48,984 nucleotides of DNA from NCBI GenBank assembly GCA_022561455.1, contig JADFRC010000001.1:1-48984 (forward strand), in the 5' to 3' direction. Within the stretch, counting starts at the first letter, position 1. Each line of letters opens with the position of its first letter. Shown here one piece after another: positions 742-48,984 of this stretch. The position numbers and the translations under genes are program-made. This DNA comes from Chloroflexota bacterium. GTDB lineage: Bacteria; Chloroflexota; Dehalococcoidia; Lucifugimonadales; Australimonadaceae. Below the pieces are notes generated by a model. That model did not search any database, had not been told where the DNA came from, and was given only the letters and a program-made list of their open reading frames with translations.

Positions 742-1344
742 ATGCACGTGTCCGGAAGAGTGGTCAGCGCGGCCATCGCGGGAGTGGCGTTCACGGGGCT
801 GCTGGCGCTCATGGGCTGGGGGATGCTGACCCGCGAGCCGCTCACGGGACGGAGTGGCATCACCCGCGTGGGCCAGCCGGCACCTGATTTCACCCTCCCC
901 GTGTTGGACGCGGACGAGGAGCTCACGCTGTCGGACTACCGTGGGACGCCCGTGGTGCTGAACGTGTGGGCGTCCTGGTGTCCCCCGTGCCGCATCGAGC
1001 TTCCCCTGCTCGAGCGCGGCTCCAACGAGTACGCCGCATCAGGTGTGCAGTTCATCGGGCTCGACATCCAGGACACTGAAGCAGCCGCGCTATCCACGGT
1101 CCGGCGGTTCGGGCTCACGTACCCGAACGTCCGCGACGCGCGCGGCCAGACCGCCGTCGACTGGGGCATCGTGGGCCTGCCGGTGACGTTCTTCATCGAC
1201 CGTGACGGCTTCGTGGTGCGGCGGGCCGTGGGCGCGCTGACCTCCGAGAAGCTGGCCGTCGCCGTGGAAGAGCTGATCGCAGATACGACGCCCCGAGACG
1301 ATAGCGACTTGGTCAACCCCGACCAGTACTACGAGCTGCAATGA
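742..1344 (+). CDS. TlpA/ResA-like thiol-disulfide oxidoreductase (thioredoxin fold, membrane anchored)
   Basis: 200-aa ORF with an N-terminal hydrophobic anchor and the motif VLNVWASWCPPC. SD-like GAGGGAGG lies just upstream of the ATG. Confidence 0.85.
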   Translation: MHVSGRVVSAAIAGVAFTGLLALMGWGMLTREPLTGRSGITRVGQPAPDFTLPVLDADEELTLSDYRGTPVVLNVWASWCPPCRIELPLLERGSNEYAASGVQFIGLDIQDTEAAALSTVRRFGLTYPNVRDARGQTAVDWGIVGLPVTFFIDRDGFVVRRAVGALTSEKLAVAVEELIADTTPRDDSDLVNPDQYYELQ

Positions 1345-28602: not shown

Positions 28603-29547
28603 GTGACCACGTTTTCGAGCACCGCGATCGAGGGGTTCCAGCGCCGGGTCCAGGCTCTCACGGACAATATCCTGGAGGTCGTGGTAGCGAAGCCCGGCGT
28701 CGTCAGGATGGCCGTGCTGGGGCTCCTATGCCAGGGCCACGTCCTGCTGGACGATCTGCCCGGCGTGGGCAAGACTCTCTTGGCCAAGGCGCTGGCTCGG
28801 TCGCTCGATGCCAGCTTCAAGCGCATCCAGTTCACCCCGGACCTGTTGCCCTCCGACATCACCGGCTCTTCCATCTACGATCCCAGCAGCCAAGCGTTCC
28901 GCTTCGTCCCCGGGCCGATCTTCGCGAATGTCGTGCTGGCCGATGAGATAAACCGCTCCAGCCCGCGGACCCAATCGGCGCTGCTGGAGGCGATGGGCGA
29001 GGGGCAGGTGACGTTCGATGGCGTGGCGCATCCCCTGCCCCGCCCCTTCTTCGTCATCGCCACCCGCAACCTGGCGGAGATGCACGGCACCTTCCCGCTG
29101 CCGCAAGCCCAGCTGGACCGCTTCTTGCTGGCGTTCGGCATCGGCTATCCCAGCCAGGAAGAGGAGGTGGAGATCCTGGAGCGCCATGAGCGCGGGCGGT
29201 CCAGCCCACCGACGGTCCTGTCCGCGGAGGAGATCGTGACCATGCAGGACCAGCTCTACCTGGTGGAGGTATCCCGCCCGGTGAAGGAGTACATCGCCCG
29301 CATCGTGGCGGAGACCCGCGCCAGCGATGAGATAGCCATCGGCGTGAGCCCGCGCGGAGCGGTGCACCTGCAGCGGGTTGCCCAGGGGAGGGCCGCGATG
29401 GAGGGCAGGAGCTTCGCCACGCCCGATGACGTGAAGTCGGTGGCCCCCGCCGTCCTCCTGCACCGCCTGTTGCCCCGCTCCTCGCAGTCCGGTGCCGCCG
29501 CCGCGAGCCTCGACGCGGTCCTGGACGCGGTCCCCATCCCCCTGTAG
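28603..29547 (+). CDS. MoxR-family AAA+ ATPase
   Basis: Walker A DDLPGVGKT, FKRIQFTPDLLPSDITG, Walker B VLADEINR and SPRG sensor region. GTG start. Confidence 0.92.
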   Translation: MTTFSSTAIEGFQRRVQALTDNILEVVVAKPGVVRMAVLGLLCQGHVLLDDLPGVGKTLLAKALARSLDASFKRIQFTPDLLPSDITGSSIYDPSSQAFRFVPGPIFANVVLADEINRSSPRTQSALLEAMGEGQVTFDGVAHPLPRPFFVIATRNLAEMHGTFPLPQAQLDRFLLAFGIGYPSQEEEVEILERHERGRSSPPTVLSAEEIVTMQDQLYLVEVSRPVKEYIARIVAETRASDEIAIGVSPRGAVHLQRVAQGRAAMEGRSFATPDDVKSVAPAVLLHRLLPRSSQSGAAAASLDAVLDAVPIPL

Positions 29548-29561
29548 GGAGCGCCGCCCCG

Positions 29562-30764
29562 ATGACCAAAGCTGGCGCAGCATTCATCGGAGCGGGGGTG
29601 GCGGTCTACGTCCTGGGCGGTCAGACCCAGATCGGCTGGCTCTACCTTCTGGATGCGATGATCTGGAGCCTGGTAGCGCTCTCGGCGCTCCTCCCCTGGT
29701 GGAGCCTCCGGTCCTTGCGGATAGAGCGCCAGGTGTGCCTCCCTACCCCTCCGGGCGAGCAGCAGGACCAGGCCCTCCCGGTCGAGGGCGGGACGGTGGA
29801 GGTCAGGCTGACGGTGACGAACCGGGGGCGCCTGGCCCGATACTTCGTCAAAGTGGTCGAGGAGTGTCCTCTGGAGGAGCCCGAGGCTCGGTCCAAAGCC
29901 TTCCTCCTCCCGGCCGTGGGGGCGCGGTCCGATGTGGTCTTTTCCTACACGGCCGCCTGCTACCGGCGGGGGCGGTACACCTCCGCGACGGCCGTCCTGG
30001 AGACGGCCGCGCCTCTGGGCCTCTTCGTCCGCCGCCGCCGTTACGATCTTCCTCTTGCCGTGACCGTCTACCCCGCGTCCTACGAGATGGAAGGAGTGCC
30101 CGCCACCAGCGACGTCTGGGCAGACCAAGGACAGGCGGTCCGGTCCAGCGCCGCGTCCGACTTCTACGGTTCTCGGGAGTATCAGTACGGGGACCCCCTC
30201 AGGCACATCCACTGGCGCAACACCGCTCGGCTGGGCCGGTTCGTCGTCAAGGAGTTCGAGGAGACCAGCCAGGGCTCCATCGCCGTGGCCTTCGAGACCG
30301 CGCGGGAGTGGGGCGTGGGCAAAGAGACCACCGTGGAGTACGCCATCAGGATCGCTGCGAGTCTGGCCCGCCACGGGGGCGGCGCTGGGCGCAGCATCGG
30401 CATCCTGGCCGGCCCGGCGCCGTTGTCCGGGGCTCACTGGTTGGAGGCGATGGACTATCTCGCCGGGCTTGCGCTGGGCGAGACGGCCAGCCTGGACGAG
30501 CTCACCGCGGCACCGGAGGCCGGGCGGACCCTCTTGGCCATCGTTCCGGCCAATGAGACCGGTCTCATTCCCAGCCTGCAGCGCCTGGGCGAACGGGAGA
30601 GGCGCCTGGTGGTGGTGCTGACCGAAGGCTTTGGCGCCGGCGAGATGCCCGAGGAGTTCGCCTCGCGGTTGGGCGGCGGCAGCATCGACCTAGTCCGCTG
30701 CTCCCGAGGCGATCTCGGGGCAGCCGTGGAGGCACTGGGCCGTTCCCGGCTGTTCGCGGGTTAG
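29562..30764 (+). CDS. DUF58 domain protein (MoxR partner, vWA-like)
   Basis: N-terminal two TM segments plus the diagnostic FYGSREYQYGDPLRHIHWRNTAR block. Confidence 0.88.
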   Translation: MTKAGAAFIGAGVAVYVLGGQTQIGWLYLLDAMIWSLVALSALLPWWSLRSLRIERQVCLPTPPGEQQDQALPVEGGTVEVRLTVTNRGRLARYFVKVVEECPLEEPEARSKAFLLPAVGARSDVVFSYTAACYRRGRYTSATAVLETAAPLGLFVRRRRYDLPLAVTVYPASYEMEGVPATSDVWADQGQAVRSSAASDFYGSREYQYGDPLRHIHWRNTARLGRFVVKEFEETSQGSIAVAFETAREWGVGKETTVEYAIRIAASLARHGGGAGRSIGILAGPAPLSGAHWLEAMDYLAGLALGETASLDELTAAPEAGRTLLAIVPANETGLIPSLQRLGERERRLVVVLTEGFGAGEMPEEFASRLGGGSIDLVRCSRGDLGAAVEALGRSRLFAG

Positions 30765-30788
30765 CGCACGGCGGCCACGGGCCAAGGC

Positions 30789-32873
30789 GTGAGCATGACC
30801 AGATACGCCCTTAATTTCAGGTTCCTGGCCTTCCTGGCCATCAGCTGCTCGATAGCCGCGGTCGCGCTGGTGAGTAGCGATCCCCTGCTGTTTGGGGTCG
30901 GCGTCGCGGGGCTGGCCACCGGCACCGTCTACATGCGGCGCGTGCGCTATGCCCGATCGCGGGTGCGCACAGGCGTTCTGCTCCTCCTGCTCCTCGTCCT
31001 CCTGGCCCTCCTGGGGCGAGACATGCTCTTCTCGCTGAACAGCGACCCGCTCCTGCTGGCACGCTACCTCGTCTTCGGGCTGATCGTCGGCAGCTTCGAC
31101 CTGCGGACCCGGAGGAACGTCCTGGGCACCCTGGTCCTGGCGGGCATGCTCTTCGTGCTGCTCACCACGATGGCCTTCAGCCTGTGGTTCCCTGTCCTGA
31201 TGGGCGCCTTCGTACTCCTCGCGCTCGCCGCGGCGACGGTGGGCCACATCGACGAGGAGGCCAGCCGGGCGGTCGTGGTGGGCGGGGGCACTCGACGGGC
31301 GGCAGGCATGCTCTGGACGGGCTTCGGGACGGTGTTCGTGCTCCTCTCGGTGGCCCTTTTCCTGCTGATGCCCCGGATCGGAGCCGCCGGCCTCGTCCAA
31401 GCGAACTGGCTTCCCAGCCGGATCGACCTGACCCGTGGGGGGCCGTCTTTTCTCCCCAGCCGGCCCGGCGTTGGCCTTTCGCCCGGGGTACTGCCCTCTG
31501 AACAGCTTCGCGGAGCCGGTGAATACGTTGCCCTGGGATATACAGGCTCGGCCGCGGACAAGGTTGTGATGTACGTCCGGAGCCGCGTGTCCAGCTATTG
31601 GCGTGGCGCTACCCTCGACGAATACGATGGCGCGGGATGGCTGCCCTCGACCTCCAGAGTCACGCTGGTCGATGAGGGCCAGGGCGGCTACGTATTCCCG
31701 GATTCGAACCTCCGCACGGTGGGGCGCAGCTGGTACTCCCAGACCTACTACCTCCAGACTGACCAGCCCAACGCCATCTTCACCGGCTACAGCCCCGGGC
31801 GGCTCTTTCTGCCCCGCACCAGTCAATCGGGACTCTATCGAGGCACCGTCTACCGCGCCGTCTCGCCGGTGCCGAACCTCACCCCCGGGCAGCTCCGCCG
31901 CGACCAGGCGGATGCAGCCCAGCAGGCAGACCTGGCCCTCCCACCCATCGGCGCGAGGACCAAAGCCCTCGCAGAATCGATCGTCGAGGGCGCCGCGACG
32001 GACTGGGACAAGGCGGTCCGTCTGGAGCAGTTCCTGCTCCGCAACTACCCCTATGACCTGGACGTGGAGCCACTGACCCCAGGGAGAGATGCCGTCGAGG
32101 TCTTCCTGTTCGAGCAGCAGGCGGGCTACTGCTCGCAGTTCGCGACCGCCATGGCCGTCATGGCGCGCCACGTCGGGCTGCCGGCCCGCGTCGCCATGGG
32201 CTATCTGCCCGGCGTGTACGACCCGCTGACCGGTGCGACCGCAGTGCGCGCGGGCGATGCCCACGCATGGGTGGAGATCCGCTTCCGGGTCGCCGGCTGG
32301 GTGGCGTTCGACCCCACGCCGAGGCCCGACTTCGTCCTGAGCCCGAGGGCAGGCCAAGGCTGGGTCTCCTTCGGCCTCATGGACTTCGTCGGCGTCGACT
32401 TCACCCGTGCCATCGCGTCGCTCGCGGCCGACTGGGACCTCGGCCAGCTCACCCTGCCCGGTTGGGGCGCGCTCGCCGTCCTTGGAGCGGCCGCCCTGGC
32501 CGTGGCTTCGGCCGCGCTGTTCCTTGCCCGCCGCAAACGAAGCGGTGGACCGAGCGTAACGGGATACACGGCGCTTGCTGGCGAGCCCCGGCGGGCCGTC
32601 TTGGACGTCTACCGCCGGATGGCCCTTCTGCTCGTCAGGAGGGGCTTGGCGCCGCGGCGACCCGCCCAGACACCCCACGAATACCTGAGGCAGGTCGCCC
32701 CCCAGCTTGCCGGCGGTATCGAGACGGTGGAGTGGCTGACCGAGGCGACCAGAGCAGCCGCCTACGATCCAAGGCCCTTCGACCCATCCGTGGCCCGGGA
32801 AGCGGGCGGCAGATTCGCTGCCCTCCCGCGCACGCTCACCGTCAAGATGATCGAGACGCCACCGCCACCGTGA
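30789..32873 (+). CDS. Transglutaminase-like membrane protein (TgpA-like: N-terminal multi-TM + transglutaminase core + C-terminal DUF4129-like)
   Basis: GYCSQFATAMAVMARHVGLPARVAMGY (Cys), GDAHAWVEI (His) and FDPTP (Asp). Multiple N-terminal TM helices and one TM after the core. Confidence 0.88.
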   Translation: MSMTRYALNFRFLAFLAISCSIAAVALVSSDPLLFGVGVAGLATGTVYMRRVRYARSRVRTGVLLLLLLVLLALLGRDMLFSLNSDPLLLARYLVFGLIVGSFDLRTRRNVLGTLVLAGMLFVLLTTMAFSLWFPVLMGAFVLLALAAATVGHIDEEASRAVVVGGGTRRAAGMLWTGFGTVFVLLSVALFLLMPRIGAAGLVQANWLPSRIDLTRGGPSFLPSRPGVGLSPGVLPSEQLRGAGEYVALGYTGSAADKVVMYVRSRVSSYWRGATLDEYDGAGWLPSTSRVTLVDEGQGGYVFPDSNLRTVGRSWYSQTYYLQTDQPNAIFTGYSPGRLFLPRTSQSGLYRGTVYRAVSPVPNLTPGQLRRDQADAAQQADLALPPIGARTKALAESIVEGAATDWDKAVRLEQFLLRNYPYDLDVEPLTPGRDAVEVFLFEQQAGYCSQFATAMAVMARHVGLPARVAMGYLPGVYDPLTGATAVRAGDAHAWVEIRFRVAGWVAFDPTPRPDFVLSPRAGQGWVSFGLMDFVGVDFTRAIASLAADWDLGQLTLPGWGALAVLGAAALAVASAALFLARRKRSGGPSVTGYTALAGEPRRAVLDVYRRMALLLVRRGLAPRRPAQTPHEYLRQVAPQLAGGIETVEWLTEATRAAAYDPRPFDPSVAREAGGRFAALPRTLTVKMIETPPPP

Positions 32874-39552: not shown

Positions 39553-41169
39553 CTACTCCTCCCGGGCGCGGTTGTACCCGCCGTAGTAGTACTGCGAGTA
39601 GTACGCATACGTATCGGCGTCCCGGCGGAGTTTGTTGAGGACGACGTCCACGCGCGCTGCCTTCACCATGTCCAGCCCCTGCCTGGCGCGCTGGACCGCC
39701 GTATTGCGCAGCATGCCTGACCAGACAACCAGGATCACCCGGTCCACTGCATTCGCGACCACAAGCGCATCGCTCGAGTAGAGCACCGGCGGGCTGTCCA
39801 GGATGATGACGTCGGCCATCTCCTTCATCTCATCCAGCATCCGCCGCATGCGCCCGGAGCTCAGGATGGCAGTGGGCGTCGAGGTCGAGGTCCCCGCGAC
39901 CAGGACCCTGAGGCTCCCCGAGCGCGCATCTGAAGGCAGGGGGCAGTCCGTCAAGAAATCATCTAGCCGCGCGTCGTCTCGTGAGAGATATTCGTTCAGC
40001 CCCTCATCCTGTGGGAGCCCGAGCGCGCGGTGCAGGCTCGGCCGCCTCATGTCCGCATCGAGTGCGATGACTTTCTGACCGGCCATGGCGTGAGCCAGGG
40101 CCAGATTGGACACGACCGTCGTCTTGCCTTCTCCGATCTCGGCGCTGGTGACGAGGATCGTCTGCGGTTCCGGCCCGGGCCGGGAGAATTGCAGGTTCGC
40201 GCGTAAGAGGTGATAGGGCTCCAAGAGCGATGGGTCCTCGACCCTGCTTTTCACGCCGGCGGGACCCCCCCCCGGCTTGAGCAGGCTGTGGATCGGCAGC
40301 GCACCCATGACCGGAACGCCGAGGAGACGTCGCACCTGGTCCGGGTTCCTTACCTTGTTGGTGTCCAGATATTCCAGACCAAACGCCAGCCCGAGCCCGA
40401 TCATTGCGCCCAGGATCAAACCCAAGGCGGCGATCCTGCGCGGGTTGGGATAGATCGGCGAGCTCGGGGTCGAGGCACGCGCGCGCACCGTCAGCACGTC
40501 GGTGATCCGCGCCGTCCCCAGCCGCATCGCCTCAAGCTCCGTCAAGCCGACCGCGTATTGGCTTTCGAAGGAGCGCAGCTGCAGACCGAGCGATTGCGGG
40601 TCGCCTTCTCCCGCGGCGAGAGCCCCCCTGGTTTGTTCGATCTGCTGCAGCAGGCTGTTGGTGCGGACCTGGAGGATCGCCGCGGCCGTTGCCGCCCGCC
40701 GGTGCCACTCGAGCAGACTCTCCGCTCGCATCACGTCGGCCAGCTCGTTGGCGACGTCCGCGGCCAGCATGGGGTCTGTGTGTTCTACCGTGATACGCAG
40801 GAAGGCCGTGCTATTTATCGCAGCCAAGGTGATCTTGCCCAGACCCACTCCCGCGGGGAGGTCGAGGTTATCGGCCACCTGGTTGAGGATGGGGGGCGTC
40901 TTCATCAGCTCGATGAAGGTGGGCACCGCCTCCCGGCTCAAGAACAGCCCCGAGAAGGGGTCCATCTGCGCCGGCCGTATCGCCGCCGCGTTGACTTGGA
41001 GGATCGCTTCGGTGCGATAGCGCGGCGTCAGCGTGAACGTGAGAACGACAGCGCCGGCGAGGCCAAGGACAAGCGGAAGGACGATGATCCACCGCCGTTT
41101 CCACAGCATCTGGGCGTATTCGGCTAACGAGAGCCCCGTGTCTTCGGCGTCCGTCTGATAGTCCTGCAT
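39553..41169 (-). CDS. Polysaccharide co-polymerase (Wzz) fused to a BY-type tyrosine autokinase
   Basis: Start MQDYQTD at 41169. Wzz-like N-terminus with two TM segments, Walker A SAEIGEGKTT, A' VIALDADMRRP, B VIILDSPP, and C-terminal tyrosine cluster DTYAYYSQYYYGGY. Confidence 0.88.
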   Translation of the reverse strand: MQDYQTDAEDTGLSLAEYAQMLWKRRWIIVLPLVLGLAGAVVLTFTLTPRYRTEAILQVNAAAIRPAQMDPFSGLFLSREAVPTFIELMKTPPILNQVADNLDLPAGVGLGKITLAAINSTAFLRITVEHTDPMLAADVANELADVMRAESLLEWHRRAATAAAILQVRTNSLLQQIEQTRGALAAGEGDPQSLGLQLRSFESQYAVGLTELEAMRLGTARITDVLTVRARASTPSSPIYPNPRRIAALGLILGAMIGLGLAFGLEYLDTNKVRNPDQVRRLLGVPVMGALPIHSLLKPGGGPAGVKSRVEDPSLLEPYHLLRANLQFSRPGPEPQTILVTSAEIGEGKTTVVSNLALAHAMAGQKVIALDADMRRPSLHRALGLPQDEGLNEYLSRDDARLDDFLTDCPLPSDARSGSLRVLVAGTSTSTPTAILSSGRMRRMLDEMKEMADVIILDSPPVLYSSDALVVANAVDRVILVVWSGMLRNTAVQRARQGLDMVKAARVDVVLNKLRRDADTYAYYSQYYYGGYNRAREE

Positions 41170-41174
41170 GGCCG

Positions 41175-42200
41175 CTACGCTCGCCCTGCCAGCCAACGGG
41201 CCCCACGCACCGTGAAAGCCCACGCCTGGAGCGGCCGGGCCGGCGTGTTGCTCGACGGCGCCCGCCACTTGGCGGCCGCTTGGATCCGGCTCGGCCAGCG
41301 CATGCCGATCCCTTGGAGCACCCCGGCCGGATGGCGCAGGTAGCTTCCGAACCGCCGCGCATACCCCGGGTGGCCCGCTCCCCACGCTCGGAGCACGTCG
41401 GAGACCAGCCACTCGGGCAGCTCCACTGCCATCCGTCCCTCGCGTGGTACGTCGAGGCGCGCGCCCAGGAGTTCCTCAGCGACGCGGAGGACGCACATCA
41501 CCCAGCTCGAGTGGTGCTCCTTCCCGCTCAGGAAGTACTCCCAGTCGAACCCCGCCGGCAGGCGGTCCAGCGCCACCCCGACGTCGCATAGCCACGTCGG
41601 CCGCCAGAAGCCGTGGCGCAGCAGGTGCAGACACAGGAGGCGCAGATGGTCCTCGGGCCCCAGCATGCGTATCTCGACGTCTCCCAGGGCGGCGAGCTGA
41701 GAACGGCGGTAGAGCTCGTCCAGGGGGCGGTCGGCGAGCTCGCTGAACCGTGGGTGCAGGTCCACCCCGGCGCGCATCACGTTCGGCGTGGCCTTGGCCA
41801 CCGCAAAGGTCTCGGGGGGGACCAGCAGGTCGAGGTCGCCGTAGGGGCGCAGGCCCGGCTCCGGATAGAGCCGCGCGATGGCCCAGCCCTTCGCCAGCAG
41901 CGGCTCGATGCCGGCCGAGCGCAGCAGACCGACCGTGCGCGCGAGCTCGTGCTCGTGGACGGCAGCCTGGATGGTGTGCAGGCGGTAGGAGCGCCGCAGC
42001 CGTCTCCCGGCACGGGACGTGGCCAACGGGGAGTGCTGGAAGCGCCACCAGCCCAGCGCCCCCCCACCCGTCTCCAGGAGCAGCGGCGTGATCTCGCCCA
42101 GCTCCTCGGCCGACATGGCCATGGGCGGGGGCGGCTGGCGCCACGCTCCGGCAAGAGCCGTCGCCAACAGGCCGCCTTTCTTGCTCGTCGATCTGGTCAT
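41175..42200 (-). CDS. Uncharacterised nucleotidyltransferase family protein (NTP_transf_5 / PF14907-like)
   Basis: GIEPLLAKGWAIARLYPEPGLRPYGDLDLLVPPE is the block I associate with this family. The start is either ATG 42200 or GTG 42230; the latter overlaps the upstream gene by 8 nt. Confidence 0.7.
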   Translation of the reverse strand: MTRSTSKKGGLLATALAGAWRQPPPPMAMSAEELGEITPLLLETGGGALGWWRFQHSPLATSRAGRRLRRSYRLHTIQAAVHEHELARTVGLLRSAGIEPLLAKGWAIARLYPEPGLRPYGDLDLLVPPETFAVAKATPNVMRAGVDLHPRFSELADRPLDELYRRSQLAALGDVEIRMLGPEDHLRLLCLHLLRHGFWRPTWLCDVGVALDRLPAGFDWEYFLSGKEHHSSWVMCVLRVAEELLGARLDVPREGRMAVELPEWLVSDVLRAWGAGHPGYARRFGSYLRHPAGVLQGIGMRWPSRIQAAAKWRAPSSNTPARPLQAWAFTVRGARWLAGRA

Positions 42201-42222
42201 GATTCGCAACCGTGCAGACTCC

Positions 42223-42732
42223 CTAGACACACTCGGGTTCGCTGATGTTTCTGCATTTGCCCAAGCAGCAGATCTTCGTGCAGTTCGGGGGGCCGCATGG
42301 GAGAAAGTTGTTTATTCCCGCACAGCCGTTGGCGGCGACACACGTACCGGCCTGAGCGGCGGTCGGCGACACGATCGATATGACCGTGGGTAAGAGGACC
42401 GCCAGTCCGACCACCCCCGCCTTCACCAGGAACTTCCTCCGCGAGTAGCGAGCCGCGAGCAACGGCGGCGCGAGGCGCTCGACCAGGAGATGCGCCTTGT
42501 CGAGTCCCGCCAGCCCCAGCCGCACCACGTCCTCGTCCCGTGGCAGGCCGAGCTCGCTCTGGAGCACCGCTGCCATCTGGTCCGCATCCGTCTGACCGTC
42601 GCAATGACTCCAGATGAGTCCCGCGGCCGCGTTCAAGCAGTACGCCCGGTGCCGCTGGAGGTCGTACACCAAAGTTTCGTCCGCCACCCGCTTGATCACC
42701 AGGTGGTCGTTCCGCGCTCGCGGCAACGTCAT
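42223..42732 (-). CDS. PqqD-family (RRE-type) domain fused to a twin-arginine signal-anchor and a Cys-rich C-terminal tail
   Basis: Residues 8-95 have the PqqD pattern (VIKRVADETLVYDLQRHRAYCLNAAAGLIWSHCDGQTDADQMA...). Then YSRRKFLVKAGVVGLAVLLPTVISIVSPTAAQA (S-R-R-x-F-L-K Tat consensus, h-region, AxA). Then a 41-aa tail with 8 Cys. Confidence 0.75.
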   Translation of the reverse strand: MTLPRARNDHLVIKRVADETLVYDLQRHRAYCLNAAAGLIWSHCDGQTDADQMAAVLQSELGLPRDEDVVRLGLAGLDKAHLLVERLAPPLLAARYSRRKFLVKAGVVGLAVLLPTVISIVSPTAAQAGTCVAANGCAGINNFLPCGPPNCTKICCLGKCRNISEPECV

Positions 42733-42786
42733 CGCTGTGCACCAGTTCGTAAAGGCTCATATGCCTGCTCAGCCGCGAGAATCGGC

Positions 42787-43611
42787 TCAGCTCCCCACCG
42801 CCGCGAGTAACGGTCCGGCGGTTTCCACGGCTTCGCCCCGCGAGCCGCGGAGCACGCGCGTGCCCTCGACGATCCGGGCCAGCTTCGTGAGGACCTGCTC
42901 CGGCTTCCTGCGGGCAGCCACCGTGTTGGCCAGCAGGGAGAGGACCGCCTGCCCGGGGGACAACGGCCGTGGCCGCCACCGTGCGCCGGGCCGGTACGTA
43001 GCCACCGCGATAACGCCGACCGGCAGCGGTTTGAGCCCGCCAGGGGGCTTGGGCATGTCCACCCGCACCTTCTCGGGCGGCATGTCAGCCCCTTTCCTCA
43101 GGGAGAGAGGGACTCGGTAGGGGTGCACGAGACCGTGGTCGTCGAACACCGCGTATTCGTCGGAGAAGTACGTCGCCCCGGCCCGTACCAGCGCCTCGAC
43201 GAGCGTGCTCTTGCCCGAGTAGCTGCGTCCGGGTATCACGATCGCCCGGCCTTCCCAGGCCACCACCCCCGCATGGACGAACAGCTTGCGCCGCGACCAT
43301 TCCGCGACGTAGAGGCGCACGTCATCTTCGAGGCGGTCCAGCACCTCGTCTGGGTCCATGGACCTGGCGATCCGGGCTGCGCCTGCGTAGAGAAGGCTGT
43401 AGCGCCGCACGCCGGAGCGGCCCCCGTCGCCCCCGGCGATCAAGGAGTAGAGGCGGTCGACGACGTTGGACGAGGCCGGCCTCCACCCCGGAGGCAGGCG
43501 TTGCGGCAGCTCATCGAGTAGCTGCGGGTCGTTCATCCGGATGCCGATCCTCAGCCCGTGTGCCACGAAGCTCATGCCTGTCGCCCACCCGAGGCGATCG
43601 AGCGTCTCCAT
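42787..43611 (-). CDS. HprK-related P-loop kinase (HPr kinase C-terminal-domain-like)
   Basis: 274 aa. VHAGVVAWEGRAIVIPGRSYSGKSTLVEAL P-loop in the position and context typical of HprK-related kinase A/B families. Confidence 0.78.
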   Translation of the reverse strand: METLDRLGWATGMSFVAHGLRIGIRMNDPQLLDELPQRLPPGWRPASSNVVDRLYSLIAGGDGGRSGVRRYSLLYAGAARIARSMDPDEVLDRLEDDVRLYVAEWSRRKLFVHAGVVAWEGRAIVIPGRSYSGKSTLVEALVRAGATYFSDEYAVFDDHGLVHPYRVPLSLRKGADMPPEKVRVDMPKPPGGLKPLPVGVIAVATYRPGARWRPRPLSPGQAVLSLLANTVAARRKPEQVLTKLARIVEGTRVLRGSRGEAVETAGPLLAAVGS

Positions 43612-43707
43612 TCAGGTGGAGCCCCGTTTGAGACGAGGAAGCGCATCGGGGTCTCCCCGATGCATCGGGGAGCTCCGTGGCCCCTTCACGAAAAGGATCT
43701 CTTCCAT
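43612..43707 (-). CDS. Candidate 31-codon upstream ORF / leader or precursor peptide (speculative)
   Basis: ATG at 43707 preceded by GAGGA with 8-nt spacing. It encodes MEEILFVKGPRSSPMHRGDPDALPRLKRGST. Its TGA (43614-43612) abuts the kinase ATG (TGAATG). GC3 is lower than in neighbouring genes, so coding status is unproven. Confidence 0.25.
   Translation of the reverse strand: MEEILFVKGPRSSPMHRGDPDALPRLKRGST
43644..43672. promoter_or_regulatory. Three-segment inverted repeat (mutually exclusive hairpins or palindromic operator) upstream of the kinase gene
   Basis: CATCGGGG (43644-51), tct, CCCCGATG (43655-62), CATCGGGG (43663-70). 43653-43672 is a perfect 20-nt palindrome, CTCCCCGATGCATCGGGGAG. 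Confidence 0.45.
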
Positions 43708-44160
43708 CTGGATCGTCCTCACCCTTCTCCATCACGATACGGGAGCGCCTTGCGAAGCGCCATCGCTCGATAGGATGGCGGCGGAGTGATGATGGCTGTG
43801 CGAGGGTAGTCCGATAGAGGTACCCCGGCTGACGCGTGACCCATACCGACGAGCCGAGTAGCGGTGCGGCCGCAGGCAACGGGCGTGACGAAGCGTGTCT
43901 CCAGCAGAGCCCTCCCCCGGTCACGGCAACGACCGCCCTATACGCTTGACCTCATAGGCTGCGGGAATGCCCGTTTTCGTGTCAATGGAGTTCGCCACAC
44001 GTTTTTCAGGCGTTGCGAAGACGCTGCCTGAACGAGCACCGGTCCACCTCGGTGGCAGAGGGAACTACGGATGCGGCAGGTTCGCTCGCGCGGGGGTCGA
44101 GCGCGGTGGCTGCGGTGCTTAGCTCCGCGTGGGCCTTGCGGCCGCCGGCGCAGCCCGCCG

Positions 44161-45963
44161 CTACCGCTGTGCAGACTCGATCCGAAAGACCTGGACGCGG
44201 TGGTTGTTCGTGTCGCTCACGTACGCGTTGCCAGACCCATCGAGCGCGATCGCGGTGGGGAACTGGAACCGGCCGGGCCCCGTCCCCTCGCTGCCCCACG
44301 CAGCCAGGAACCCCCCACGGCTGTCGAAGACCTGCACCCGGTTGTTGCCGGCGTCGGCCACGTAGACCCTGCCCGCGCCGTCCACCGCGATGCCCGCAGG
44401 GGAGGAGAACTGGCCTTCGGCGCTCCCCTCGGACCCCCAGCTCCTGAGGAACTCGCCAGCGGAGCTGAACACCTGTATCCGGTGGTTCCCGCCGTCGGCC
44501 ACGTAGATATCGCCGTTGCTATCCGATGCGATCGCGGAGGGGCGCACGAGCTCCCCGCGTTCATCGCCCCGTCTGCCCCACTCGGCCAGCGGCTCGCCGC
44601 CGGGGCCGAACACCTGTATCCGGTGGTTCCCGCCGTCGGCCACGTAGACATTCCCGATGGCGTCCACCATCACGCCGTTCGGGATCTCGAGCTGCCCGGC
44701 CCCAGCGCCTTCGGTACCCCACTCCGCCACGCGCTCCCCGCTCGGCGCGAAGACCTGCACGCGGTGGTTGCCCGTATCGGCCACGTAGACGTCCCCAGAG
44801 CTATCCACGGCGACGCCCCGGGGCCACCGGAGGTTCGAGGTCTCCCAAGCAGCCAGCAGCTCGCCCGCCGGAGTACGCACCTGCACCCGGTGATTTCCGG
44901 CGTCTGCGACATAGACGTTCCCATCACCGCCAACGGCTACCCCGCGGGGCCAGAGGAAGCCATCTTCGCTCGGTTGCCCGCCCCAGGTTGCCAAGACCGC
45001 CCCACTGGGATCGAACGCGATGACCCGATTTTCGAGATCGGTGACATACACCTGACCACGCCCATCGACTGCGACTCCCGCCGGGTCACGCAGCTCCGAT
45101 CCCCAGCTCGCGATCGGATTCCCTGTTTGATCGTAGATCCGCACCCGGCCGCCGTCTGCATCGGTGACGTAGACCCTCCCTGAGTCATCGACCGCTATCG
45201 CTCGGGGGTCGAGCGTCCCCTCCAGCGCCGTCTTCAAGTCCCACGCCCGCAAGAAAAGACCACCGCTGCTGAAGACGTGCACGCGCTCCGCCGTCAGCTC
45301 CAGCACGTACAGCTTGCCGTCCATGCCCAGCGCTATGCCGCCGGGGGTACGGACATGGCCGCTTTCGCCCGGAGGACCCAGGATGGAGAGGAATTCACCG
45401 CGATCGCTGAACACCGAGACCCGCCTGTTGCGGGCGTCTACGACGTAGACCCTGCCGAAGCGGTCGGCCACGATATCCGATGGTGCCTCGAGCTGGCCCT
45501 CACCGTCTCCTCGCTCGCTCCACGTGGCGACCAGATCGCCGCTGGGCTCGAATACCTGGATCCGGTGGTTGCCGGTATCCGCGACGTACACGTTCCCGAG
45601 GAGCCCAACCGCGATCCCCATCGGGTGATCGAAATCTCCGTCGCTACGACCGAGGCCCCCCCACTGCCGGAGCACCTCGCCGTCCGGGGAAAAGACCTGC
45701 ACCCGGTGATTGAGCGTATCGGCGACGTAAACGTTGCCGGCGCCGTCGAGGGCGACGCCGGATGGACCATTCACCTGGCCCGGCGCGGCAGCGCCGCCCC
45801 AGGCCTGGAGGAAGCTGACGGTCAGGGTCTCCTTCTCGTCTTGGGCGCAGGCCCCGAGCAGCCAGACTGCCGCGGCACACAGGAGGAACGCTCGGCCGAG
45901 ACTCACCGGCAGGGACCACGGAGGAGTCAGTACTTCGCGCAACGGTGCTCCTCGCTGGTCCAT
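44161..45963 (-). CDS. NHL-repeat lipoprotein (12 blades, two six-bladed beta-propellers)
   Basis: Lipobox LLGAC after MDQRGAPL (ATG 45963; the track start is 45999). Twelve repeats of the type YVAD.GNHR[VI]QVF...G. Confidence 0.88.
   Translation of the reverse strand: MDQRGAPLREVLTPPWSLPVSLGRAFLLCAAAVWLLGACAQDEKETLTVSFLQAWGGAAAPGQVNGPSGVALDGAGNVYVADTLNHRVQVFSPDGEVLRQWGGLGRSDGDFDHPMGIAVGLLGNVYVADTGNHRIQVFEPSGDLVATWSERGDGEGQLEAPSDIVADRFGRVYVVDARNRRVSVFSDRGEFLSILGPPGESGHVRTPGGIALGMDGKLYVLELTAERVHVFSSGGLFLRAWDLKTALEGTLDPRAIAVDDSGRVYVTDADGGRVRIYDQTGNPIASWGSELRDPAGVAVDGRGQVYVTDLENRVIAFDPSGAVLATWGGQPSEDGFLWPRGVAVGGDGNVYVADAGNHRVQVRTPAGELLAAWETSNLRWPRGVAVDSSGDVYVADTGNHRVQVFAPSGERVAEWGTEGAGAGQLEIPNGVMVDAIGNVYVADGGNHRIQVFGPGGEPLAEWGRRGDERGELVRPSAIASDSNGDIYVADGGNHRIQVFSSAGEFLRSWGSEGSAEGQFSSPAGIAVDGAGRVYVADAGNNRVQVFDSRGGFLAAWGSEGTGPGRFQFPTAIALDGSGNAYVSDTNNHRVQVFRIESAQR
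44467..44648 (-). repeat. Intragenic tandem duplication within the NHL gene (141-nt period)
   Basis: A 41-nt exact copy gaacacctgtatccggtggttcccgccgtcggccacgtaga at 44467-44507 and 44608-44648. The offset is 141 nt, or 47 codons, which is one NHL blade. Confidence 0.85.
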
Positions 45964-46176
45964 GCCGCACATCATTAGGGAGACACGGTACCATTGCAAT
46001 CAGAACATAAGTTCTTTTACGCTGCGCCTTCACCCGATGCCGCGGGGTGCTCCAGTGTTCGCTTGTGTGCTCATCGACCACCTGCCGGTCAAGGCAGAGG
46101 TCCACCGGGCGCCGTCCGCTCCCACGGATGACGTTCGAGTGCGCGGGGCACGATTCATGAGCGTAAGATTGGCCGC

Positions 46177-46398
46177 ATGGCGACGATTGAAGAGATCGAG
46201 CTGACGGTCCTCGACAAGGCGATCTTCTGAGCCGGCTGAGAGCACCGCATCGTGCGCGAGCTCGGCGGTCTGCCGGGCGTGGAGAAGGTGACAGCCGACC
46301 ACAAGACGCAGGTCGTGCGCCTCACGCTGGACGTCGAAAAGATGTCCCCTGACGAGGCAAGGAAGCAGCTGGAGCGCGCGGGTTTCCCTGCGCGCTGA
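46177..46398 (+). CDS. HMA/CopZ-like metallochaperone ORF with in-frame TGA at both positions of the CxxC motif (candidate UxxU selenoprotein, or pseudogene)
   Basis: A single frame reads MATIEEIELTVLDKAIF-TGA-AG-TGA-EHRIVRELGGLPGVEKVTADHKTQVVRLTLDVEKMSPDEARKQLERAGFPAR*. High GC3 is kept before and after the TGAs. The spacing from the second TGA to L.GV matches the HMA fold. It lies 15 nt upstream of copB. Confidence 0.5.
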
Positions 46399-46413
46399 AC
46401 CGTCGAGGCTCTC

Positions 46414-48456
46414 ATGGAGCACGCATCCCACGCCGCGCACCAGCCCGAGGCCGGCCAAGCCGGTCCCCAGCACTCCGCGGGCCACGGCTCCCATCACGCC
46501 CACATGGTGGCCGACTTCAGGCGGCGCTTCTGGGTGTCGCTTGTCCTGAGCGTCCCGATCCTCGCGCTGGCGCCGCTGATCCAGGAAACGTTGGGCGTCG
46601 CCGATGCCTGGGCGTTCGGGGGCGACCGCTTCATCCAGTGGGGCTTTTCGACGGGCGTGTACTTCTACGGTGGCTGGCCCTTCCTGACGGGCATCGTTAC
46701 CGAGCTGCGGGGCCGGGCCCCAGGCATGATGACGCTCATCGCCGTCGCCATCACGACGGCCTACGTCTACAGCAGCACCATCACCTTCGGCGTCTCCGGC
46801 GACGGCTTCTTCTGGGAGCTGGCCACGCTGATCGACGTCATGCTGCTCGGGCACTGGCTGGAGATGCGCTCGATCCTCGGTGCCTCGCGGGCGCTGGAGC
46901 TCCTTGCCAGCCTCATGCCCGCGGACGCGCACCGGCTGAGCGCGGACGGCACGACCTCAGACGTACCCGTCGCGGAGCTGCGGCCCGGCGACCGCGTGCT
47001 CGTGCGGCCCGGGGAGCGCGTGCCCACGGACGGCGTCGTGGCCGACGGCCGCTCGTCGGTCAACGAGGCCATGCTCACCGGCGAGAGCGCCCCCGTCGAG
47101 AAGAGGGAGGGCCTCCAGGTGATCGGAGGGTCCGTCAACGGCGAAGGGGCCCTCACGGTCGAGGTCCAGCGCACCGGCGAGGAAACGTACCTCGCTCAGG
47201 TCATCGAGCTGGTGCGCCAGGCACAGGAGACGCGCTCACGCACGCAGCGGCTGGCGGACCGCGCGGCGTTCTGGCTCACGATCGTCGGCATCACCGCCGG
47301 CGCCGCGACGCTGATCGGCTGGTTCGGCGCGTCCGCCACGGCCAATTTCGCGCTCCAGCGGGCGGTCACGGTGGTCATCATCACGTGCCCCCACGCGCTC
47401 GGCCTCGCCATCCCGCTCGCGGTCTCCGTCTCCACCTCGATCGCCGCGCGTCACGGTCTGCTCATCAGGGACCGCGCGGGCTTCGAGCGGGCCCGGTCGA
47501 TCGACGCGATCGTCTTCGACAAGACCGGCACGCTCACCGAGGGGCGCTTCGGCGTCACCGCGGTCGTCCCGCTCGACGGCCGGAGCGAGGACGACGTCCT
47601 GCGCTTGGCCGCCGGTATCGAGCGCTCCTCCGAGCACCCGATCGCCCGCGGCATCGTCGAAGCAGCTGAGGCTCGCGGGCTCGGCGGCGCGCGTGTCAGC
47701 GGCTTCGCCGCGATCCCAGGCCGGGGCGCGAGCGGCGTCGTCGACGGGCGGGACGCGAAGGTCGTCAGCCCCGGTTATCTGCGGGAGCAGGGGATCGCCG
47801 CCGACGCCGGCAAAGTCGGCGCTCTCGGCGGCACGGGCGACACCGTCGTCTATCTCCTGATCGAAGGCGCGCTTGCCGGGGCGATCGCTCTCGGCGACAT
47901 CGTCCGCGAGGAGTCGCGCACGGCGGTGAACGACCTGAAGGCCATGGGCATCCGCGTCATCATGCTCACCGGCGATGCCGAAGCCGTCGCACGCTCGGTG
48001 GCCGATGAGCTCGGGCTCGACGACTTCTTCGCCGAGGTCCTTCCGGGCGAGAAGGCCGCGAAGATCCGTCAGCTTAAACAGCGAGGTCTGACGGTAGCGA
48101 TGGTCGGAGACGGCGTGAACGACGCACCCGCGCTGACCGAGGCGGACGTCGGCATCGCGATCGGAGCGGGGACGGACGTGGCCATCGAGTCGGCCGACGT
48201 CGTGCTCGCCCGCTCGGACCCGCGCGACGTCGTCACCATCGTCCGGCTCGCCCAAGCGACGTATCGCAAGATGGTCCAGAACCTCTGGTGGGCGACGGCC
48301 TACAACCTGATCGCCATCCCCCTGGCTGCGGGAGCGCTCTACAGCTGGGGCTACGTCATGCCCCCCGCGGTGGGCGCCGCGCTGATGTCGGCGTCGACGG
48401 TGATCGTCGCGATCAACGCCCAGCTCCTCCGCCGGTTCGAGCGCACATTAGCCTGA
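46414..48456 (+). CDS. copB: Copper-transporting P1B-type ATPase, CopB-like (His-rich N-terminus, CPH motif)
   Basis: N-terminus [10 protein letters not shown]...HGSHHAHM with no HMA domain. TGES, TM6 [24 protein letters not shown] and [10 protein letters not shown]. Confidence 0.92.
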
Positions 48457-48458
48457 GG

Positions 48459-48677
48459 TCAGTGGTGCTCGTGGGGGCCGCCGAGGTGCAGCAGCTCGTG
48501 GTAGAGGTCGTGGGCCTCCTTGGCCGTGTCCGTGACCGGGTCGAAGTGCGTGTGGAAGTCGGCGAACTCGAATGAGGGCTGCACGAATGCCTTGAACGCC
48601 GCCGTCGCCTTCTCCAGCTCCTCGACCTTGGCGATGAGCTCCTGCATCTTCCCGTCGAATAGAACGTTGGTCGTCAT
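48459..48677 (-). CDS. Small hypothetical protein with a His-rich C-terminus
   Basis: 72 aa, very high GC3, predicted helical, ends LYHELLHLGGPHEHH. Its stop is 2 nt from the copB stop (convergent). Confidence 0.6.
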   Translation of the reverse strand: MTTNVLFDGKMQELIAKVEELEKATAAFKAFVQPSFEFADFHTHFDPVTDTAKEAHDLYHELLHLGGPHEHH

Positions 48678-48970
48678 GCCGATCCCTCCTCGATCTCGTA
48701 ACGTGCGGTCCGCTCCGCGCTCTCGCGCCGGATCTTGAACTTGAGCCCCTCGTACTCGCCCTCGTTCTCCTCACGGAGCAGCTCGATGCCCTCGCAGATG
48801 GAGCCTGCGCCCGCGAGAAGCTCGTGCGACGTGCCGGACGCGTCGCGGACCGCGAGTGCGGCCGCGTACCCGCGGACGGTCACCACCACGTAGGGGTTCG
48901 CCTCGAGCGTCAGGTCTATCCATTCGGTACCGACCCGGAGCCTCGGGACGTCTTGGTTCAGCTCGCTCAT
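48674..48970 (-). CDS. Hypothetical protein
   Basis: High GC3. ATG 48970 is preceded by GAGAGGTG (the track begins at GTG 48976). Its stop overlaps the downstream small gene start (ATGA). No recognisable motif. Confidence 0.55.
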   Translation of the reverse strand: MSELNQDVPRLRVGTEWIDLTLEANPYVVVTVRGYAAALAVRDASGTSHELLAGAGSICEGIELLREENEGEYEGLKFKIRRESAERTARYEIEEGSA

Positions 48971-48984
48971 GCACACACCTCTCG

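Follow-up and report, generated by a model that had tools for sequence, protein, structure and literature searches.

An intact CopZ-like gene of a Chloroflexota contig with both CxxC cysteines encoded by UGA, a probable UxxU selenoprotein

This study concerns a small gene for a protein with a heavy-metal-associated (HMA) domain, located at 46177-46398 of a 48,984-nucleotide stretch of contig JADFRC010000001.1 (hereafter the window, i.e., the whole stretch of DNA analysed) from the Chloroflexota bacterium assembly GCA_022561455.1. Our results point to an intact CopZ-like HMA gene in which both cysteines (Cys) of the metal-binding CxxC motif are encoded by UGA, and whose product is probably a UxxU selenoprotein (U, selenocysteine, Sec). 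This reading, drawn from sequence comparisons, relies on the alignment of Cys with the UGA codons, on purifying selection upstream of them, on their conservation across lineages, and on a downstream hairpin resembling a selenocysteine insertion sequence (SECIS). The data show an intact frame under selection before and after the UGAs, conservation of both UGAs, and a conserved hairpin that agrees with the bacterial SECIS (bSECIS) model. We hold it very probable that both UGAs are translated and that the gene is functional. Double-Sec proteins of HMA type are already known, and the window protein forms an unannotated, separate lineage of this kind.

HMA frame and Cys-type relatives

Conceptual translation of 46177-46398 (+) gives MATIEEIELTVLDKAIF, a stop, Ala-Gly, a second stop and EHRIVRELGGLPGVEKVTADHKTQVVRLTLDVEKMSPDEARKQLERAGFPAR, followed by the terminal stop. 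The internal stops of this frame are limited to TGA 46228-46230 (UGA-1) and TGA 46237-46239 (UGA-2), with two codons between them. Scored with Cys written at both UGA positions, the product matched Pfam HMA (PF00403) over residues 15-70, with E=2.8e-12 and 47.3 bits against a gathering threshold of 24.8. In a 21-sequence alignment, both UGA positions corresponded to invariant Cys in all full-length Cys forms (16/16), the nearest being 58% identical and of nearly equal length; furthermore, Cys-type proteins aligned end to end across both TGAs (tblastn, E about 1e-20). These results uphold a preliminary description of this DNA, which had proposed a 73-codon HMA frame interrupted only by two TGAs at the CxxC, and had suggested the alignment with Cys homologues as a check. 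It had also raised as a caveat two extra residues before the first UGA; they are real, but constitute a normal trait of the subfamily, whose pattern around the ligands is ...VLDKAIHCxGCE.... Its view of UGA as a normal stop in the window was likewise sound: TGA ends 17 of the 39 confidently called genes, the HMA gene included, which excludes a global recoding of UGA. The G+C content across the window is 62-71%. An antisense open reading frame (ORF) of 86 amino acids (aa) at 46155-46415 (-), overlapping the HMA gene, was discarded as a shadow frame, with G+C fractions of 0.41 and 0.69 at first and second codon positions (GC1 and GC2), respectively.

The Cys-type relatives recovered in our searches were full length, 50-64% identical and mostly 73 aa long, and many of the 73-aa forms come from Chloroflexi/Chloroflexota metagenome-assembled genomes (MAGs); MTKIEQLELTVLDNAIHCSGCESRI is one example of a Cys form. 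The names given by their sources, several of them in such MAGs, were 'heavy-metal-associated domain-containing protein', 'cation transporter' and 'copper chaperone CopZ'. Cys-type 73-aa proteins of Chloroflexota MAGs (P0053, P0047, P0050 and P0014) have in common with the window protein the length, the fold, the MAKIEQxELTVLDxAI N-terminus and the x-G spacing; they differ in carrying TGY-encoded Cys exactly at the UGA positions, and in the residue preceding the first Cys, which is His in them and Phe in most Sec forms (i.e., the double-UGA genes). The lineage of the window protein lies within this Chloroflexota 73-aa 'IHCxGCE' CopZ-like Cys family.

The residue preceding the first ligand, codon 17 (46225-46227 in the window), is His in the Cys forms (IHC) and Phe in most Sec forms (IFU or MFU); among the latter, only locus L020 keeps His (IHU). 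The change from His to Phe may reflect a change in site chemistry accompanying Sec.

The structure was modelled with AlphaFold2 on the Cys homologue P0014 (58% identical to the window protein), so that the fold of the window protein is given by homology. The model displayed a beta-alpha-beta-beta-alpha-beta arrangement (E4-11, H19-30, E35-41, E46-52, H58-67) with a predicted local distance difference test (pLDDT) value of 94.7; Cys18 and Cys21 were both located at the N-terminal end of helix 1. The best PDB matches of the model were MerP, metal-binding domains of ATP7B and CopZ, with TM-scores of 0.84-0.89 (0.87 to MerP 1osd; 0.84 to CopZ 2qif and 6ff2). By homology, the window protein is expected to adopt the ferredoxin-like HMA fold, with both metal ligands in the beta1-alpha1 loop/first turn of helix 1.

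In a neighbour-joining tree, 37 of 50 bootstraps recovered the main clade of Sec forms together with L017 and L019, and 6 of 50 recovered all Sec forms as monophyletic. Locus L020, a Sec form, fell among the Cys forms, its nearest being P0066 and P0047. The position of L020 and the low support for Sec monophyly suggest either a second Cys-to-Sec conversion in the family or a reversal, both of which are possible, 73 residues being too few to decide.

Related loci and selection

When the Cys-substituted product was searched against 5.8 billion proteins, only 11 clusters were retrieved, all of which were truncated gene calls: nine had 48 aa and started just after UGA-2, and the others had 52 and 66 residues. 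None had been named by its source, and no full-length or Sec-annotated entry for the window protein was found among them. Since all 11 clusters are unnamed fragments, the real product is invisible to annotation. In the contigs of the truncated cluster members, obtained from ENA and NCBI soil metagenomes (loci L001-L012), the upstream frame ran in every case through TGA-x-x-TGA back to a conserved ATG. The same double-TGA arrangement was present in two Chloroflexota MAGs (L013 and L014), found by scanning species-representative genomes, and a metagenome scan provided a further locus of the same kind (L016); in total, the metagenome and genome scans yielded 1 and 3 loci, respectively, one of which (L015) was spurious. 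Distant relatives were sought by exhaustive HMMER searches with a profile of the 48 C-terminal residues, with no assumption about the CxxC positions. These again recovered truncated gene calls, whose DNA contained intact frames of 73-75 codons with both TGAs, and with spacer variants U-QG-U (L017/L018), U-TG-U (L019) and U-SG-U (L020).

All 20 related loci retain the TGAs; these loci derive from soil metagenomes and MAGs that are independent of each other, two of them labelled Chloroflexota. Given that the two TGAs fall on the Cys columns and recur in every related locus, their placement is not due to chance. Sequencing or assembly error at both positions is ruled out, since the same two TGAs are present in about 20 contigs from ENA, NCBI and JGI metagenomes and two GenBank MAGs, derived from independent samples and assemblers.

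Selection was assessed on eleven distinct gene sequences of the main clade, as proportions of synonymous (pS) and nonsynonymous (pN) differences. In codons 2-17, ahead of the UGAs, pS was 0.31 and pN 0.05 (pN/pS = 0.16); the ratio was 0.21 downstream of the UGAs and 0.25 for the whole gene. Conservation begins exactly at ATG 46177, the non-coding DNA just 5' of it displaying 58% mean column identity and many indels. The ratio upstream of the UGAs agrees with the earlier proposal that the frame is selectively maintained. Furthermore, the C-substituted products of at least four lineages are only 48-63% identical to that of the window, yet both TGAs and the 73-75-codon frame are kept.

These data bear on the possibility that the locus is a pseudogene, namely a former CxxC chaperone gene with two nonsense mutations. 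Such an origin would need only single-step changes from TGC to TGA, public gene calls yield nothing other than a truncated remnant (48 aa in 9 of the 11 clusters), and one relative, L021, is truly decayed. However, at least four lineages keep the TGAs and the full frame and carry neither further stops nor frameshifts, the codons upstream of the stops show the low pN/pS given above, and the adjacent non-coding DNA decays fast by comparison, all of which makes this explanation very improbable. Additional stops or frameshifts in relatives, which the preliminary description had named as the mark of a true pseudogene, were found in L021 only. In that decayed copy (positions 1-200), TGA-CCC-GGC-TGA and the hairpin are kept, the N-terminus is scrambled at the contig start and an extra TGA replaces Arg67; L021 illustrates how a pseudogene of this family looks.

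A further explanation without read-through would be the synthesis of two products, i.e., a 17-residue leader and a 48-residue protein starting at GTG 46252, with the hairpin in a regulatory or coupling role. GTG 46252 does yield the ORF reported by gene callers, and leader-region hairpins can regulate downstream genes. Conversely, the presumed leader and full-length HMA proteins are homologous, residue for residue, over strand beta-1 and the metal loop, and the codons between and after the UGAs (x-G, then E/A/V) follow the CxGCE of the Cys forms. Of the modelled fold, beta-1 and one half of helix 1 would be missing from the 48-residue fragment, no other start is conserved in L001-type loci, and the GTG is simply the Val of R-I-V-R. 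We therefore regard the two-product scheme as hardly tenable.

Candidate SECIS and possible constraint at the RNA level

RNAalifold on 12 sequences, together with pair counts first on 12 and then on 15 sequences, identified a hairpin at 46260-46278. The distance to the start of its loop is 36 nt from UGA-1 and 27 nt from UGA-2. Pairing was retained in 100% of cells across the 15 distinct sequences (15/15), compared with 32-44% in register-shifted controls. In L003, a G-C pair is replaced by A-U through a compensatory double change, at the cost of the substitutions G30S and P33L, and three further pairs vary on one side only with pairing retained. The loop variants were G-GUC-U, A-GGC-U, A-GUC-U and A-GUU-U, and the folding energies ranged from -9.9 to -12.3 kcal/mol. 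The bSECIS consensus describes a loop N1-G-[G/U]-N-N2 that starts 16-37 nt after the UGA, with an energy limit of -7.5 kcal/mol (PMC13188914). Applied by hand, this description agrees with the hairpin in loop pattern, stem (7-8 bp), spacing (27/36 nt) and energy.

The coding sequence over this region appears to be constrained beyond the protein level. In the main clade, pS in codons 22-34, directly after UGA-2, was 0.063, versus 0.31-0.40 elsewhere in the gene. Among divergent lineages, residues that are identical used the same codon in 50 of 58 comparisons within the hairpin versus 178 of 311 outside it (Fisher p = 1.5e-5, the pairs not being independent). For the loop codon, only GGT, AGT and AGG are used, with respective frequencies of 9%, 3% and 10% in this genome, and in this way G-[U/G] is kept in the loop; AGT for Ser recurs in L002, L017 and L019.

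The preliminary description had placed the candidate SECIS closer to the UGAs, at 46240-46263, nested in a GCCGGC/GCCGG outer stem, and considered its short distance from the second UGA a weakness. That structure is present in the window sequence, but is not supported as a SECIS: pairing is lost at three of its positions, in 8, 6 and 4 of the 15 sequences, respectively, and shuffles were not beaten. The conserved hairpin lies instead at 46260-46278, which removes the concern about spacing.

Other RNA-level observations were made in the same region. The minimum free energy (MFE) of the region, obtained by single-sequence folding, was no better than that of shuffles (z = 0.66), so that folding energy alone is uninformative at 68% G+C. 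The stretch at 46246-46256 is possibly a spacer or an accessory part of the recoding signal; in L017, L019 and L020, only its CGC/GCG core is kept, with no covariation. A long-range stem proposed by RNAalifold (columns 13-17 with 71-75) and a lower extension of the hairpin (columns 36-37 with 59-60) were rejected, as neither is kept in L019 and L020. The apical motif GGCRGKYTGCC had no second occurrence in the window or the fetched loci, where no second selenoprotein gene turned up. Likewise, a scan of the window for other ORFs with coding signal continuing through a TGA returned only the HMA gene's own stop.

Proposed Sec assignment and mechanism

We propose that translation would start at ATG 46177, and that a SelB-type elongation factor with Sec-tRNA(Sec) would be recruited by the hairpin at UGA 46228 and again at UGA 46237, Sec being inserted in place of termination at both codons. 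We infer Sec as the inserted residue, and a single hairpin serving both codons. The product would be a 73-residue cytoplasmic metal-binding protein of HMA fold, with U-A-G-U as ligands. A soft metal ion, most likely Cu(I), would probably be bound by a diselenolate site at the start of helix 1, and probably handed for export to an HMA-less CopB-type ATPase, where this neighbour is encoded; copper as the metal, and the ATPase as partner, are likewise inferred. Overall, we consider it likely that the residue is Sec and that the mechanism operates as described. For Chloroflexi, published surveys describe selenoproteins and Sec decoders, as well as a tRNA(Sec) of the 8/4 type, the latter mentioned in PMC5389517.

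Several observations weigh against this assignment. Formal covariation in the hairpin is weak, with one compensatory pair, and 49 of 500 shuffles equalled its score. With the codon usage of this genome, the peptide ELGxLPG yields the complete seven-pair stem in 11% of cases, and LGRLPG is also present in some Cys forms; the stem is therefore partly pre-encoded by the protein, and the hairpin may in part simply follow from the protein sequence. Rfam gave no relevant match, either for the whole window at the gathering threshold or for 46150-46420 at E<=10. Compared with E. coli fdhF, the hairpin lies 9 and 18 nt further from the UGAs. Regarding the decoding machinery, neither selA, selB and selD nor selC/tRNA-Sec was seen in the 49-kb window or in the flanks of the related loci, a small part of the genome, so that this absence means little: selA, selB and selD were not found by Pfam annotation of about 40 window genes, and no tRNA-Sec was found by ARAGORN, which may miss tRNA(Sec) of the 8/4 type, in the window and six loci. 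As to metal specificity, the best structural match of the P0014 model was MerP, the CopZ models scored far below their cut-offs, and five relatives have no adjacent ATPase.

The UGAs might also be recoded through a SelB/SECIS-like route with Cys as the inserted residue, delivered by a SelB paralogue and a tRNA(Cys) that resembles tRNA(Sec) and has the anticodon UCA, or, as a variant, with some other amino acid. Systems of this kind (selC*/selB*/cysS*) are described in Deltaproteobacteria and a few other lineages in passages of PMC5389517, and conserved UGAs, a conserved hairpin and Cys in the homologues would fit Cys insertion equally well. According to the same passages, however, the selC* systems belong to delta-proteobacteria and to contigs probably from Nitrospirae, not to Chloroflexi, for which the 8/4-type tRNA(Sec) is given, and every selC*-containing genome also had a complete Sec apparatus (PMC5389517). 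Two costly UGAs for a residue that TGC would encode offer no obvious benefit, and the replacement by Phe, in most Sec forms, of the His that precedes the first Cys suggests a changed site chemistry. Insertion of Cys is accordingly judged distinctly unlikely.

A more elaborate version of Sec insertion is doubtful in our opinion, namely a specialised tandem-Sec element in which one far-downstream SelB hairpin would cooperate with the invariant 46246-46256 for SelB reloading or ribosome pausing, so that one SECIS could serve two Sec insertions three codons apart, the diselenolate having a function beyond that of the Cys forms. If this were true, a tighter or faster capture of Cu(I)/Hg(II), or a diselenide redox switch, would be possible, and it would explain the retention of the gene without ATPase and a possible repeated switching from Cys to Sec (L020 among the Cys forms).

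Comparison with known systems

The preliminary description had considered a bacterial double-Sec HMA protein unusual; conversely, the NCBIfam model NF041115 and two reviews already include a UxxU metal-binding selenoprotein. NF041115 ('UxxU_metal_bind') represents a small single-domain HMA-like protein with U-x-x-U and presumed metal binding, and its length of 74 is close to the 73 residues found here. It was the top NCBIfam match of the window protein, with residues 8-73 aligned to model positions 7-70 of 74. However, the score was 27.4 bits (24.9 for the L001 variant) against a cut-off of 95 bits, and no better than those of the generic MerTP, CopZ and MerP models, which places the window protein outside NF041115 as a separate lineage. 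CopZ models (NF033795, NF033794 and TIGR00003) likewise gave 21-27 bits, below their cut-offs of 62-95; for the CopZ equivalog models, the scores were 21-24 bits and the cut-offs 91-95. The reviews (PMC9312934, PMC13188914) list a 'putative mercuric reductase / metal-binding protein' with UxxU and 2 Sec. By its citation number, the 2022 review credits the UxxU family to the same study as the Olavius (OS_) entries; passages of the 2007 Olavius-symbiont paper make no mention of it.

Sec forms of HMA-bearing transporters, such as 'Cation-transporting ATPase E1-E2, UxxC' and the MerT/CopZ fusion selenoprotein NF045683, similarly have Sec for Cys in a heavy-metal site. These contain one Sec in a fused domain, whereas the HMA protein studied here is free-standing and has two predicted Sec. 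CopZ/CopA-type pairs resemble the present locus in that the HMA protein is encoded directly 5' of a copper P1B ATPase; they differ in that the ATPase is here of CopB type, without an HMA domain of its own, and dispensable in five relatives.

The SECIS of E. coli fdhF, the bacterial SECIS studied in most detail, is also a hairpin within the coding sequence, 3' of the UGA, and its apex GCA-GGUC-UGC is comparable with GGC-GGUC-UGCC here. The fdhF loop begins 18 nt from its only UGA, against 27 and 36 nt from the two UGAs here. The bulged U of fdhF has no counterpart in the core stem, an A bulge at 46259 being present only in the main-clade extension. The fdhF SECIS sequence used for this comparison was checked, and is present in 5,419 of 5,426 E. 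coli genomes. SelB contacts G and U of the fdhF SECIS loop.

The window protein falls below the only existing model for UxxU metal-binding selenoproteins. If confirmed, it would represent an additional selenoprotein family for soil Chloroflexota, and would link selenium use to the handling of copper or other soft metals in this phylum. Comprising 73 codons with one hairpin and two UGAs spaced by 9 nt, it would also be a compact natural system for studying double Sec insertion from a single SECIS, and its close Cys-type relatives permit a direct comparison of Sec and Cys in metal affinity and transfer.

Neighbouring genes and genomic context

The features of the HMA locus are listed in Table 1.

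Table 1. Coordinates of the HMA gene, its putative recoding elements and the adjacent features in the window
Feature	Position	Strand	Remarks
HMA-domain gene, CopZ/MerP fold, predicted U-x-x-U replacing C-x-x-C	46177-46398	+	73 codons; own stop TGA 46396-46398
In-frame UGA-1, codon 18	46228-46230	+	Aligns with first Cys of CxxC; TGA in every locus reaching the position
In-frame UGA-2, codon 21	46237-46239	+	Aligns with second Cys of CxxC; TGA in every related locus
Invariant stretch CGCAUCGUGCG	46246-46256	+	No synonymous change in main clade; could form a 4-bp mini-hairpin
SECIS-like hairpin	46260-46278	+	7-bp stem G-CUCGGC / GCCGGG-C; loop 46267-46271 (GGUCU), whose end bases can make an eighth pair
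CopB-type (P1B-3-like) copper ATPase	46414-48456	+	Starts 15 nt after the HMA stop
-10-like hexamer TAAGAT	46164-46169	+	7 nt 5' of ATG, no Shine-Dalgarno between; read from the sequence, weak assignment

The neighbouring ATPase matched TIGR01511 with 603 bits (cut-off 397) and the Pfam domains E1-E2_ATPase and Hydrolase, with no HMA match. Its translation displays an N-terminal HASHAAH...GHGSHHAH, CPH in the region of the fourth transmembrane segment (TM4), YNxxxxP and MSxSTxxVxxNA, motifs which we take to indicate subgroup P1B-3 after the Arguello classification. Type, position and lack of HMA agree with what had been reported initially, and an ATPase without its own HMA domain fits well with a free chaperone as partner. 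The tie between both genes is nevertheless looser than had been implied: the ATPase is adjacent to the HMA gene in the window and in L001-L005, L007, L011-L013 and L016, and it is absent from L006, L008, L009, L010 and L014, where the intact double-UGA gene abuts homologues of window 48458-48984. The pairing is thus optional, and the ATPase is a likely but optional partner. As such, the ATPase gene represents a clean presence/absence polymorphism among the relatives. In L017-L019, the neighbours of the HMA gene are unrelated. The stop TGA 46396 shares the reading frame of ATG 46414, at a distance of five codons, and was therefore considered as a possible third recoding site or a sign of a read-through fusion of the HMA protein and the ATPase; since this relation is lost in L001 and L003, it looks coincidental and the fusion was rejected.

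Upstream of the gene, GCGTAAGAT, which contains the -10-like element, is conserved in the main clade, and the remaining upstream DNA diverges with indels; a scan for consensus promoters found nothing at this element. This arrangement weakly suggests a leaderless or near-leaderless transcript of the HMA gene. About 58 nt 5' of the ATG (46119-46176) are conserved in the main clade, with a GTGC...GCAC inverted repeat at 46133-46148, and could represent a leaderless promoter with its operator. L001, L002 and L011 have an AGGTGG-like Shine-Dalgarno sequence instead.

Downstream of the ATPase, two overlapping ORFs on the reverse strand encode 72 aa (48459-48677, -) and 100 aa (48674-48976, -). Neither had a Pfam match, and the first product ends in the His-rich HLGGPHEHH. 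In the relatives with sufficiently long contigs, these ORFs adjoin the HMA module whether or not the ATPase is present, and a metal-related role is possible for them. On the other side, the region 39553-45999 (-) is unlike that of the relatives, which carry a LicD gene there, and homology to most close relatives starts at 46119. This region encodes a 612-aa protein with 10 NHL repeats (44161-45999), a 274-aa ORF, a PqqD-like protein (42223-42732), an NTP_transf_5 nucleotidyltransferase and a Wzz/ParA-type putative tyrosine kinase.

Elsewhere in the window, an AhpC/TSA-redoxin protein is encoded at 742-1344 (+), from a family with known Sec forms and with no in-frame TGA in this gene. Several ABC transporter operons are located at 11-28 kb and 33-38 kb, and a cluster at 28603-32873 (+) includes genes for a MoxR-type AAA_3 ATPase, a DUF58 protein and a TgpA-like transglutaminase.

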